Shown: positions 2,920 to 61,372 of the stretch, in pieces
How the letters are laid out: every line of letters starts with the position of its first letter
How positions within the stretch are numbered: position 1 is the first letter of the stretch
DNA from: Escherichia coli
GTDB taxonomy: Bacteria > Pseudomonadota > Gammaproteobacteria > Enterobacterales > Enterobacteriaceae
DNA length: 64,000 nt
Direction: 5' to 3' (one strand)
Assembly (NCBI RefSeq): GCF_030384885.1
Contig: NZ_CP128613.1
Made by a program: the position numbers and the translations under genes
Notes under the pieces: model-generated
Seen by the model: the letters and a program-made list of their open reading frames with translations, nothing else
Databases searched by the model: none
What the model was told of the DNA's origin: nothing

Positions 2920-2958
2920 TGATAAGACGCGTCAGGCCGGATAAGACGCGTCAGCGTC
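2920..2958. repeat. REP-type palindromic element(s) between ypfG and tktB
   Basis: gcctgataagacgcgtcaggc / ggataagacgcgtc...gcatccggc imperfect palindromes typical of enterobacterial REP. Confidence 0.6.
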
Positions 2959-3014
2959 GCATCCGGCAATCAGCATCCGGCAATCAGCATCCGGCAATCA
3001 GCATCCGGCAATCA
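2959..3014. repeat. Perfect 14-bp tandem repeat (gcatccggcaatca) x4, plus partial fifth unit
   Basis: Read directly: four identical adjacent 14-mers 2959-3014, ending 3 bp before the tktB stop codon. Confidence 0.9.
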
Positions 3015-8575: not shown

Positions 8576-8608
8576 CGCTTACCCTGAATATTCAGGGTAA
8601 GCGGTTTT
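8576..8608 (+). terminator. Rho-independent terminator downstream of maeB
   Basis: Perfect hairpin cgcttaccctgaatattcagggtaagcg followed by gtttt. Confidence 0.6.
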
Positions 8609-16333: not shown

Positions 16334-16517
<184 letters not shown>

Positions 16518-22124: not shown

Positions 22125-22136
22125 CGGAGGTTGCCG

Positions 22137-22637
22137 ATGATCAATGCACTGGGATTGCTGGAAGTGGACGGCATGGTCGCCGCGATAGATGCAGCTGATG
22201 CCATGCTCAAAGCAGCTAACGTTCGTCTGCTCAGTCACGAAGTGCTTGACCCTGGTCGCCTAACGCTAGTGGTGGAAGGCGATCTGGCGGCGTGTCGTGC
22301 GGCGCTGGACGCAGGTTGTGCTGCCGCGATGCGTACCGGGCGTGTCATCAGCCGTAAGGAGATCGGTCGGCCAGACGATGACACCCAGTGGCTGGTTACT
22401 GGCTTTAACCGCCAGCCGAAGCAACCCGTAAAGGAACCCGACGCGCCAGTTATCGTCGGGGAATCTGCTGACGAGTTGTTGGCGCTGTTAACATCAGTAC
22501 GTCAGGGAATGACGGCAGGAGAAGTGGCTGCCCACTTTGGCTGGCCGCTGGAAAAAGCCAGAAATGCGCTCGAACAGCTCTTTTCTGCCGGGACGTTACG
22601 TAAACGCAGTAGTCGTTATCGTCTCAAGCCCCATTAA
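22137..22637 (+). CDS. eutK: Microcompartment shell protein EutK
   Basis: Start placed at MINALGLLEVDG; N-terminal BMC domain and C-terminal basic tail. Confidence 0.85.
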   Translation: MINALGLLEVDGMVAAIDAADAMLKAANVRLLSHEVLDPGRLTLVVEGDLAACRAALDAGCAAAMRTGRVISRKEIGRPDDDTQWLVTGFNRQPKQPVKEPDAPVIVGESADELLALLTSVRQGMTAGEVAAHFGWPLEKARNALEQLFSAGTLRKRSSRYRLKPH

Positions 22638-22682
22638 CCTGTCGGAGGTGCCGGGTGTCCTACAACACCCGGCATTAACATC

Positions 22683-23735
22683 ATGAAAAAGACCCGTACA
22701 GCCAATTTGCACCATCTTTATCATGAACCCTTACCCGAAAACCTGAAGCTCACGCCGAAGGTCGAAGTGGATAATGTTCATCAACGACAGACAACGGATG
22801 TCTATGAACATGCTTTGACGATTACCGCCTGGCAGCAGATTTACGATCAGCTGCATCCGGGCAAATTTCATGGTGAATTTACGGAAATTCTGCTCGATGA
22901 TATTCAGGTTTTCCGTGAATACACGGGGCTGGCGCTGCGTCAGTCGTGCCTGGTCTGGCCGAACTCGTTCTGGTTTGGCATTCCGGCGACGCGCGGTGAG
23001 CAGGGATTTATCGGTTCGCAATGTCTGGGAAGCGCAGAAATTGCGACACGCCCTGGAGGAACCGAGTTTGAATTAAGTACGCCGGACGATTACACGATCC
23101 TTGGCGTGGTGCTTTCTGAAGATGTCATCACCCGTCAGGCTAACTTTTTGCATAACCCGGAAAGGGTGCTGCATATGTTACGTAACCAGTCGGCGCTGGA
23201 AGTGAAAGAGCAGCATAAAGCCGCGCTGTGGGGCTTTGTCCAACAGGCTCTGGCGACATTTTGCGAGAACCCGGAAAATCTCCATCAGCCTGCAGTGCGA
23301 AAAGTGCTGGGGGATAATTTGCTAATGGCGATGGGGGCGATGCTGGAAGAAGCGCAGCCAATGATGACGGCGGAAAGTATAAGTCATCAGAGTTACCGCC
23401 GATTGCTTTCCCGGGCCCGTGAATATGTGCTGGAAAACATGTCCGAACCAGTGACGGTACTGGACTTGTGTAATCAACTGCACGTCAGCCGCCGCACCTT
23501 GCAAAACGCATTTCACGCTATTTTGGGCATTGGCCCAAACGCGTGGCTGAAACGCATTCGCCTGAACGCCGTGCGCCGTGAACTGATTAGCCCGTGGTCG
23601 CAAAGTATGACGGTAAAAGACGCCGCCATGCAGTGGGGATTCTGGCATCTTGGGCAGTTTGCCACGGATTATCAGCAATTGTTTGCAGAAAAGCCTTCAC
23701 TGACGCTGCATCAGCGGATGCAGGAACTGGAGTGA
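22683..23735 (+). CDS. eutR: AraC-family transcriptional activator of the eut operon
   Basis: 350-aa ORF; C-terminal AraC-type helix-turn-helix; last gene of eut operon. Confidence 0.9.
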
Positions 23736-23842
23736 AAACGACTGGTATCGCTTTTCGCCATATTTGTGTAACGAGAAAAGCCATGCAAATACTATAATTC
23801 GTATTTCTCTCAAAGAGAGTGAAGATAATCAGGAGGTCCAGG

Positions 23843-44181: not shown

Positions 44182-44210
44182 AAAAATGGCGCCGATGGGC
44201 GCCATTTTTC
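44181..44210. terminator. Bidirectional rho-independent terminator between pdxK and crr
   Basis: aaaaaaa-tggcgcc-gatg-ggcgcca-ttttt: perfect stem flanked by an A-tract and a T-tract. Confidence 0.8.
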
Positions 44211-47136: not shown

Positions 47137-47164
47137 AAAAAAGCACCTGAAAAGGTGCTTTTTT
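47137..47164 (-). terminator. Rho-independent terminator downstream of cysK
   Basis: aaaaaa-gcacc-tgaaaa-ggtgc-tttttt symmetric hairpin. Confidence 0.75.
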
Positions 47165-59056: not shown

Positions 59057-59113
59057 TGCAGATAGCAAAAAAGCGCCTTTAGGGCGCTTTTTTACATTGG
59101 TGGGTCGTGCAGG
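59057..59113 (-). repeat. 57-bp direct-repeat copy: terminator hairpin plus the 3'-terminal 16 nt of tRNA-Lys (partner copy at 59213-59269)
   Basis: Identical 57-mer gcagatagcaaaaaagcgcctttagggcgcttttttacattggtgggtcgtgcagga at both positions. Confidence 0.85.
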
Positions 59114-59253
59114 ATGACTCGCTTCGCTCGCCCTTCGGGCCGTCGCCGCGAGCGGCTCCGTTGTTTCGCTGCGCTCAACTCGAACCTGCTGCAGGTTCGA
59201 ATCTTTGAGTATCGCAGATAGCAAAAAAGCGCCTTTAGGGCGCTTTTTTACAT

Positions 59254-59329
59254 TGGTGGGTCGTGCAGGATTCGAACCTGCGACCAATTGATTAAAAGTC
59301 AACTGCTCTACCAACTGAGCTAACGACCC
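59254..59329 (-). tRNA. lysV: tRNA-Lys (anticodon UUU)
   Basis: Reverse complement matches GGGTCGTTAGCTCAGTTGGTAGAGCAGTTGACTTTTAATCAATTGGTCGCAGGTTCGAATCCTGCACGACCCACCA. Confidence 0.95.
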
Positions 59330-59333
59330 GAAG

Positions 59334-59409
59334 TGGTGGGTGATGACGGGATCGAACCGCCGACCCCCTCCTTGTAAGGGAGGTGCTCTCCCAGCTGAGC
59401 TAATCACCC
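59334..59409 (-). tRNA. valY: tRNA-Val (anticodon UAC)
   Basis: Reverse complement matches GGGTGATTAGCTCAGCTGGGAGAGCACCTCCCTTACAAGGAGGGGGTCGGCGGTTCGATCCCGTCATCACCCACCA; gene name by position. Confidence 0.95.
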
Positions 59410-59455
59410 ACTTCGGTACTTCACATTTTTACAAGAAATCTAGCTGGCGAGAAAG

Positions 59456-59531
59456 TGGTGGGTGATGACGGGATCGAACCGCCGACCCCCTCCTTGTAAG
59501 GGAGGTGCTCTCCCAGCTGAGCTAATCACCC
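59456..59531 (-). tRNA. valX: tRNA-Val (anticodon UAC)
   Basis: Identical 76-nt tRNA-Val sequence; gene name by position. Confidence 0.95.
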
Positions 59532-59574
59532 ACTTCTCAATTTCTTGCTACACGGCGGAGACTACATAAGTAGT

Positions 59575-59650
59575 TGGTGGGTGATGACGGGATCGAACCG
59601 CCGACCCCCTCCTTGTAAGGGAGGTGCTCTCCCAGCTGAGCTAATCACCC
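59575..59650 (-). tRNA. valU: tRNA-Val (anticodon UAC)
   Basis: Identical 76-nt tRNA-Val sequence; gene name by position. Confidence 0.95.
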
Positions 59651-61324: not shown

Positions 61325-61343
61325 TTAGCGCATAAAAGATAAA

Positions 61344-61372
61344 CGGCAGGAGAGATACCCCTGCCGTTTTTT
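61344..61372. terminator. Bidirectional terminator between gltX and yfeD
   Basis: cggcagg-agagatacc-cctgccg-tttttt. Confidence 0.75.

Follow-up and report, generated by a model that had tools for sequence, protein, structure and literature searches.

A hairpin conserved between eutK and eutR may bridge a split ribosome-binding site in Escherichia coli and related enterobacteria

To our knowledge, arrangements in which a hairpin bridges the Shine-Dalgarno sequence (SD) and the AUG start codon have been demonstrated essentially only in T4 phages, and a literature search for other cases of a "split" ribosome-binding site (RBS) returned T4 work only. The operator of the Escherichia coli thrS gene was reportedly described by Sacerdot et al. 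in 1998 as a "split ribosomal binding site interrupted by a hairpin", and hairpins that stabilise messages between cistrons exist as well, such as the repetitive extragenic palindromic (REP) sequence in malE-malF. In T4, hairpins cut the SD-AUG spacing from 22 to 5 nt in gene 38 and from 27 to 11 nt in gene 25, whose "split" translation initiation region (TIR) lies at the gene 26-25 junction (Nivinskas 1999; Malys & Nivinskas 2009; as summarised in PMC3014915), and destabilising these hairpins lowers translation (PMC3014915). Here we describe a hairpin, HP1, that lies between eutK and eutR in a 64,000-nt stretch of E. coli DNA (contig NZ_CP128613.1 of RefSeq assembly GCF_030384885.1; hereafter the window), which carries the E. 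coli eut operon. EutK is a bacterial microcompartment (BMC) shell protein with a C-terminal EutK_C helix-turn-helix domain (PF16365). Ethanolamine utilisation is under the master activator EutR, which also controls virulence genes of enterohaemorrhagic E. coli (EHEC) and Salmonella; the amount of EutR is known to be critical, because a weak constitutive promoter and an autoinduction loop together supply it. We propose that HP1 probably bridges a split eutR RBS, between a distal SD and the AUG.

The first-pass annotation of the window had reported a perfect palindrome in the eutK-eutR gap, and both the sequence and a repeat finder agree: two 10-nt arms, 100% complementary, enclose a 6-nt loop at 22649-22674. 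The hairpin does lie between the two genes, but the gaps of 12 and 9 bp given for it were each one too long, the actual distances being 11 nt after the eutK stop (TAA, 22635-22637) and 8 nt before the eutR ATG. The annotation was right that a T-tract is absent: the sequence 3' of the stem is ATTAACATCATG, and a terminator scan made no call. The centroid structure of the RNA is HP1, at -21.5 kcal/mol; the minimum free energy (MFE) structure, at -23.6 kcal/mol, adds two G.U pairs formed by the final two G residues of GGAGG. The z-score is -2.9, and an equally stable fold arose in 1 of 200 shuffled sequences. The window has 7 places (15 registers) with a perfect 10-bp hairpin versus 0.75 registers expected from Markov simulations, an approximately 20-fold excess. 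Most of the other six sites are bordered by A and T runs and resemble terminators; it is the conservation described below that sets HP1 apart from a chance palindrome. No Rfam family reached its gathering score at HP1 in a scan of the whole window, and a permissive scan of the region gave only chance-level matches (E about 8). The promoter/terminator scan returned no promoter-like site upstream of eutR.

Junctions between eutK and eutR were collected from species-representative genomes, from a metagenome pattern scan and from contigs encoding intermediate EutR homologues. Among the pattern-scan variants, some 50% were unrelated chance matches; those derived from eut operons gave 10 new leader variants, including the Salmonella enterica type and a repair of A.C to A-U in Klebsiella. 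A hairpin was found at the HP1 position in 38 distinct leaders. These come from Escherichia, Salmonella, Citrobacter, the Klebsiella oxytoca group, a very large cluster at 85% identity, Phytobacter and Pseudocitrobacter, and further from a Pluralibacter metagenome-assembled genome, Intestinirhabdus and a bee-gut enterobacterium with 77% EutR identity. Conservation in related eut operons had been named as the check on the palindrome, and the palindrome is clearly kept across genera. Within E. coli, the 34-nt HP1 segment was present in 5389 of 5426 complete genomes, with at least 99% identity in 5367 records, and the differences of a divergent allele were confined to the loop.

Conservation was also evident at the level of base pairing. 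In a covariance-model alignment of the 38 leaders, 97.7% of stem cells paired and 7 of the 11 HP1 pairs had changes on both sides. Double-change cells numbered 56, versus 19 +/- 3.5 in shuffled alignments, and the covariation score was 0.424 versus 0.205 (0 of 500 shuffles in each case), with only 28-51% pairing in slid-partner controls. A raw MAFFT/RNAalifold alignment had put the upper stem out of register because stem lengths differ, and was replaced by this alignment and by base-anchored counting. The latter found 96% canonical pairs over 11 levels, with 27 pair types and 46 G.U cells; pairing dropped to 29-50% when the partner was shifted by 1-3 nt. Compensation was seen within genera too: one level is U-A in E. 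coli and C-G in E. whittamii, and another is G-C in Klebsiella grimontii, A.C in K. michiganensis and A-U in a metagenome variant. The sequences of the loop and upper stem differ between genera with pairing retained, and the energy of HP1 ranges from -15 to -24 kcal/mol across genera (-48 kcal/mol in an expanded form). Synonymous third positions of eutR share 54-64% identity between E. coli and the other genera, which is near saturation; conservation of the junction therefore reflects selection, not recent common ancestry. The 46 G.U cells pair in plus-strand RNA only, which excludes both a DNA palindrome and an antisense RNA. The earlier suggestion of a protein-binding palindrome at the DNA level is contradicted by these cells and by an upper stem that changes freely with pairing kept. 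Collectively, these comparisons indicate that HP1 is a real RNA structure, selected on the plus strand.

A GGAGG motif that the first-pass annotation had overlooked abuts the 5' base of HP1. It is present in 37 of the 38 distinct leaders, the remaining one carrying GGAGA, and in HP1-bearing leaders the motif is always separated from the preceding eutK stop by 6 nt and from the stem that follows by 0-2 nt. No SD adjoins the eutR ATG in the last 16 nt. Predicted pairing with the 3' end of 16S rRNA is -10.8 kcal/mol at GGAGG in E. coli, versus -1.7 kcal/mol in the 16 nt before the ATG, and the medians across leaders are similar (-10.0 kcal/mol distal versus -1.7 kcal/mol in the last 16 nt); the exception is leader L151, with AAGGA 2 nt from the AUG. 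Counted along the sequence, SD and AUG are 34 nt apart in the window, 34-38 nt apart in other genera and 86 nt apart in Intestinirhabdus alba, and the part of that distance left unpaired is 8-13 nt, mostly 8-11 nt. The I. alba hairpin is about 77 nt long with an energy of -48 kcal/mol, its base still abuts the SD, and it ends 9 nt before the AUG. The I. alba expansion (L028, 1407-1503) consists of extra upper palindromic sequence, partly REP-like (GCCTGATGGC), with the SD and spacer junctions unchanged.

The position of the start codon could be judged from the protein. EutR begins with a conserved MKKTRTxNLHHL, and in several genera a stop codon stands in frame 9 nt before the ATG, which excludes a longer form of EutR. 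These observations indicate that the annotated ATG at 22683 is the true eutR start. In protein cluster P0015 (2937 members; L149, 780-824), EutR is annotated from a TTG inside the hairpin loop, giving a product of 357 aa that begins LPPALTIMKK...; this start call is an annotation artefact that arose because the RBS is unusual. Two further coding candidates were rejected. A mini-open reading frame starts at GTG 22655, 6 nt after the SD, and runs for 7 codons to TAA 22676-22678; its start is absent in E. whittamii and in every other genus. In E. coli, eutK and eutR are in the same frame with the TAA as the only stop between them, but a read-through EutK-EutR fusion as a conserved function was dismissed on the in-frame TAA or TAG that Citrobacter, Klebsiella and Salmonella carry 9 nt before the ATG. 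Some odd E. coli "EutR" database entries combine BMC with AraC or other eut domains (P0055, P0084, P0003, P0004, P0009); these are presumably deletions or fusions.

Together, the hairpin, its conservation at the RNA level, the invariant SD, the missing proximal SD and the constant unpaired spacing make up the observed anatomy of the junction, and from this anatomy we judge a bridged, split eutR RBS to be the probable reading. The SD lies farther from the start codon than the approximately 15 nt taken as the limit for function, anti-SD pairing at the canonical distance has a median of just -1.7 kcal/mol, and a stable hairpin fills the excess spacer, leaving a remainder of 8-11 nt versus 5-11 nt in T4. 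At 34 nt from the AUG in linear sequence, GGAGG would be too distant to function as the eutR SD. Folding of HP1 would loop out 26 nt and bring it to about 8 unpaired nt from the AUG, a functional spacing. The 30S subunit would then pair with the SD while the stable HP1 protrudes from its platform, and the AUG, after release from a weaker downstream hairpin (HP2, described below), would enter the P site. Selection would keep the HP1 stem, since in an unfolded leader the SD would be left too distant from the AUG. CsrA overproduction reduces a Salmonella P2-eutR'-'lacZ translational fusion (PMC10433801), a weak and indirect experimental hint for a split RBS; in the Salmonella-type leaders examined, apart from the SD, neither the hairpin nor the pre-ATG spacer was seen to contain a GGA.

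The hairpin is conserved among relatives, and the orthologues that lack it have an ordinary proximal SD. All sampled eutR orthologues without HP1 carry an SD near the ATG, with predicted pairing of -3.9 to -10.6 kcal/mol and, in the clearest cases, a gap of 8-10 nt. In Lonsdalea, Brenneria, Dickeya and Pectobacterium, GGAGG is followed by 9-10 nt and the ATG, and Buttiauxella, with eutK present upstream, has AAGGA or AAGGAG followed by 7 nt. Yokenella (L030, 1455-1500) retains GGAGG and a bulged, degenerate remainder of the hairpin, and has a new proximal GGAGGGG beside the ATG. Entomohabitans (L154, 741-800) has a different GC hairpin and a G-rich SD-like sequence beside the ATG. The loop of the Entomohabitans hairpin contains GGAGAG, and a perfectly complementary CTCTCC lies just downstream. 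Removal of HP1 from the E. coli junction leaves GGAGG, 8 nt and the ATG, which is the layout of the outgroups. In the simplest history, HP1 probably arose as a palindrome inserted between an ancestral SD and its spacer.

Table 1. Positions of the eutK-eutR junction features in the window
Feature	Position	Strand	Basis and comment
eutK coding sequence	22131..22637	+	Open reading frame list; Pfam BMC + EutK_C; RefSeq annotation of identical E. coli DNA
Leader block CCTGTCGGAGG	22638..22648	+	Conserved; contains SD core GGAGG 22644-22648
HP1 5' arm TGCCGGGTGT	22649..22658	+	Sequence, fold, repeat finder, covariation
HP1 loop CCTACA	22659..22664	+	Varies freely; sole difference among E. coli variants checked
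HP1 3' arm ACACCCGGCA	22665..22674	+	Sequence, fold, repeat finder, covariation
Unpaired A/U-rich spacer TTAACATC	22675..22682	+	Stem base to start codon; 8 nt here, 8-11 nt in other genera
eutR coding sequence, AraC-type activator	22683..23735	+	Start ATG 22683-22685
HP2 5' arm TCATGAAAAAGA	22681..22692	+	Contains eutR start codon; inverted repeat, context fold, RNAalifold
HP2 3' arm TCTTTATCATGA	22715..22726	+	eutR codons 11-15 CAT CTT TAT CAT GAA; moderate confidence
Candidate helix P0, 5' strand CGG	22643..22645	+	Includes first two G of the SD; RNAalifold, MFE; low confidence
Candidate helix P0, 3' strand CCG	22735..22737	+	eutR codons 18-19; RNAalifold, MFE; low confidence

Two further elements were predicted around the start codon. 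HP2, at approximately -9.7 kcal/mol, is weaker than HP1 and is predicted to sequester the AUG, and a candidate helix, P0, would close the region from outside. When applied to 23 leaders, RNAalifold returned a three-way junction of P0, HP1 and HP2 unprompted, and the E. coli MFE structure agrees. Among 56 distinct sequences, synonymous positions of eutR codons 11-15 are 95-100% fixed versus 40-75% in many neighbouring codons, and synonymous conservation is also raised in codons 17-21. HP2 shows no covariation because its pairs are invariant, and no compensatory changes were found in the 3-4 bp of P0. Two lineages that keep HP1 (L149 and L151) have lost HP2, and in these the amino acids changed. 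In genera other than Escherichia, TTAAC at the eutK stop can also pair with GTTAA in codons 21-22.

Several points weigh against a bridged RBS and have to be set beside the evidence for it. The covariance-model alignment was fitted to the model and so leans towards the structure on which it was built, and the compensatory changes cluster by phylogeny. In the lower five pairs, GCCGG/CCGGC, the sequence itself is near-invariant, which pairing alone does not demand. Use of GGAGG by the ribosome across HP1 is suggested by comparative anatomy only, and the literature searched contained no experiments on eutR translation, no structure probing, no toeprinting and no ribosome profiling. The eutR stem is also larger than that of T4 gene 38, at 10-13 bp (about 30 bp in one genus) versus 8 bp. 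Folding predictions made with 200 nt of context place the SD partly (P(unpaired) 0.04-0.72) and the AUG wholly (P(unpaired) approximately 0) in base pairs; given this pairing, the initiation region may be mainly repressive. Finally, many E. coli genes start translation without an SD, and the A-rich spacer with the AAA AAG codons that follow the start could support SD-independent initiation at eutR.

The repressive possibility can be stated more fully: HP1 would be one arm of a three-way junction with P0 and HP2 that buries the AUG and keeps EutR synthesis low, until ribosomes that finish eutK, at a stop 6 nt before the SD, open P0. Translation of eutR would then be tied to that of eutK, and the long, induced P1 transcripts would be favoured over P2 transcripts that start within eutK. 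The agreement of RNAalifold with the E. coli MFE structure, the predicted pairing of most of the AUG and SD, the unusual fixation of synonymous sites in codons 11-15 and 17-21 and the constant 6 nt between stop and SD in every HP1-bearing leader are consistent with such a fold, as is the expression of eutR from an inducible P1 and a weak constitutive P2 (PMC5821096). However, P0 has just 3-4 bp, neither P0 nor HP2 has compensatory changes, E. coli lacks the outer extension that P0 has in other genera, L149 and L151 dispensed with HP2 while keeping HP1, and 12-nt imperfect inverted repeats of comparable kind are common by chance. Moreover, a Salmonella P2-eutR'-'lacZ fusion whose insert starts inside eutK is still expressed (PMC10433801); judging from the forward primer, eutK is presumably not translated in that construct. 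We regard such a repressive junction with its coupling, which is compatible with the split RBS and would extend it, as unlikely. It is likewise unlikely that HP1 is mainly an intercistronic element for mRNA stability or processing beside an incidental GGAGG, acting as an exonuclease barrier for the eutS-eutK message after cleavage in the spacer or as a decay boundary that sets the ratio of eutR to the structural genes. A GC-rich, stable hairpin followed by an A/U-rich single strand, the type of sequence that RNase E prefers, would suit this role, and EutR must be far scarcer than the shell and enzyme proteins. Control of eutR mRNA mediated by RNase E is known (PMC8565329), and the Eut proteins quantified by proteomics include EutK but not EutR (PMC11334477). 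A stabiliser of the upstream mRNA, also among the roles raised in the first-pass annotation, needs neither an SD flush with the stem nor a constant 8-11 nt to the AUG while the length of HP1 ranges from 24 to 77 nt, and it leaves unexplained why precisely the HP1-bearing lineages have lost the proximal SD. In the supplementary files examined from an E. coli Term-seq study, no 3' end is listed at HP1 and the sole eut entries are antisense start sites; eut was probably unexpressed in those conditions, and the missing 3' end is therefore uninformative. A published table of transcription start sites lists an antisense start inside eutR at E. coli K-12 coordinate 2554640 (+) (PMC7815308).

The sequence invariance of the lower stem, GCCGG/CCGGC, in almost all leaders, next to an upper stem that covaries, suggests a sequence-specific constraint of the kind expected if HP1 were an RNA operator through which a trans-acting factor (the EutK C-domain, EutR or a small RNA) controls ribosome access to the SD. 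EutK, encoded directly upstream, has a nucleic-acid-binding-like domain of unassigned role (PF16365; PMC5821096), and its C-domain might recognise the lower stem, so that free shell protein, or eutK translation acting through P0 and HP2, feeds back on EutR synthesis. EutK_C is also found, however, where HP1 is absent or different (in Entomohabitans, and in Buttiauxella and Yokenella with full-length EutK), the small RNA MavR has its binding site towards the 3' end of the eutR coding sequence and not at HP1 (PMC8565329), the HP1 loop is unconserved, and GC clamping could account for the invariance of the lower stem. An operator of any such kind is therefore very unlikely in our estimate, and the specific feedback through EutK is a highly doubtful proposal. 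More improbable still would be a terminator or attenuator, a REP-type repeat or a DNA palindrome for a dimeric regulator, for all that HP1 is a perfect, GC-rich, intergenic palindrome whose GCCGG...CCGGC ends faintly resemble those of REP elements. Read-through into eutR had been proposed to be modulated at the hairpin; as termination this did not hold up, given that neither strand has a U-tract, no terminator was called and no Rfam family matched. An intrinsic terminator was discarded on the sequence that follows the stem, AUUAACAUC here and CUUAAAAGAUC in other genera, which has no U run. As a REP element or bacterial interspersed mosaic element (BIME), HP1 failed on copy number, with a median of one place per E. 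coli genome and a highest count of 3 (E <= 10), and it is not among the 40 sites in the window that match the REP head pattern. A DNA operator was rejected because the G.U cells are mismatches in DNA and A.C on the other strand.

If HP1 does bridge a split RBS, the structured initiation region would be a previously unnoticed post-transcriptional layer that sets EutR levels, and a chromosomal example of hairpin-bridged initiation conserved over many genera, with a mechanism that itself has precedent. RBS predictors and gene callers would mishandle such sites, as in the large EutR cluster started inside the loop, and constructs with a "cleaned up" eutK-eutR junction would alter EutR output. The natural series of hairpins of 24-77 nt with constant junctions would also provide a test set for the structure that the 30S subunit tolerates between SD and AUG. 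We found no description of HP1 in a eut review, the MavR and CsrA papers or recent E. coli eut papers; an older mention in the Salmonella literature is possible.

Other features of the window were also recorded. Directly after eutR, positions 23800-26200 have a low GC content (37-44%) and contain two adjacent Sel1-repeat open reading frames (23819-24175 and 24203-24640), possibly one split gene, a type VI secretion system (T6SS) Tli3-like immunity protein (24637-25437) and an unassigned open reading frame on the minus strand (25472-26137); in the other enterics examined, the gene downstream of eutR is instead that of coproporphyrinogen oxidase. Other perfect hairpins of 10-12 bp are found at 8576-8603, 44182-44209, 47137-47164 and 61341-61369. 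A runs on the 5' side and T runs on the 3' side give those starting at 44182, 47137 and 61341 the look of bidirectional intrinsic terminators, and the one at 8576 is without such runs. Identical terminator-like hairpins (AAAAAAGCGCCTTTAGGGCGCTTTTTT) at 59067-59093 and 59223-59249 flank an RtT RNA match (region 59098-59650), which adjoins a cluster of four tRNAs; two more tRNAs lie at 62349-62536. An Rfam match to naRNA4, a nucleoid-associated noncoding RNA of the REP325 type, covers 16386-16467, with REP heads at 16334 and 16434, and other REP-like clusters lie at 2958-3009.

Among known systems, the malE-malF REP sequence resembles HP1 as a stable stem-loop between the cistrons of one operon that has no terminator function. 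It differs in that HP1 is single-copy and not a REP element, and in that HP1 keeps its place between SD and AUG to within a few nucleotides, a precision that a stabiliser could do without. The thrS leader shares with eutR a chromosomal location in E. coli and a ribosome-binding region made discontinuous by a stable hairpin; however, the thrS hairpin is said to lie upstream of the SD and to be bound by the repressor ThrRS, whereas HP1 lies between SD and AUG. The T4 gene 37-38 junction, folded with the same tool, reads UAAGGAG, an 8-bp stem with a UUCG loop, UAAAU and AUG (-16.7 kcal/mol, z -2.8). Gene 38 and eutR thus present an upstream stop, an SD, a GC-rich hairpin flush with the SD, a short A/U spacer and the AUG in the same order. 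They differ in that eutR is a chromosomal bacterial regulator gene and gene 38 a phage late gene; that the residual spacing of 8-11 nt in eutR is larger than the 5 nt of T4; that the eutR SD lies 6 nt past the upstream stop, which the T4 SD overlaps; that a second hairpin covers the eutR AUG; and that the T4 mechanism is experimentally proven, whereas the eutR case is known from sequence comparison. The same differences separate eutR from T4 gene 25. As described in the review, gene 25 has its hairpin in close relatives and a normal RBS in distant ones (PMC3014915), as is seen in the phylogeny of HP1.

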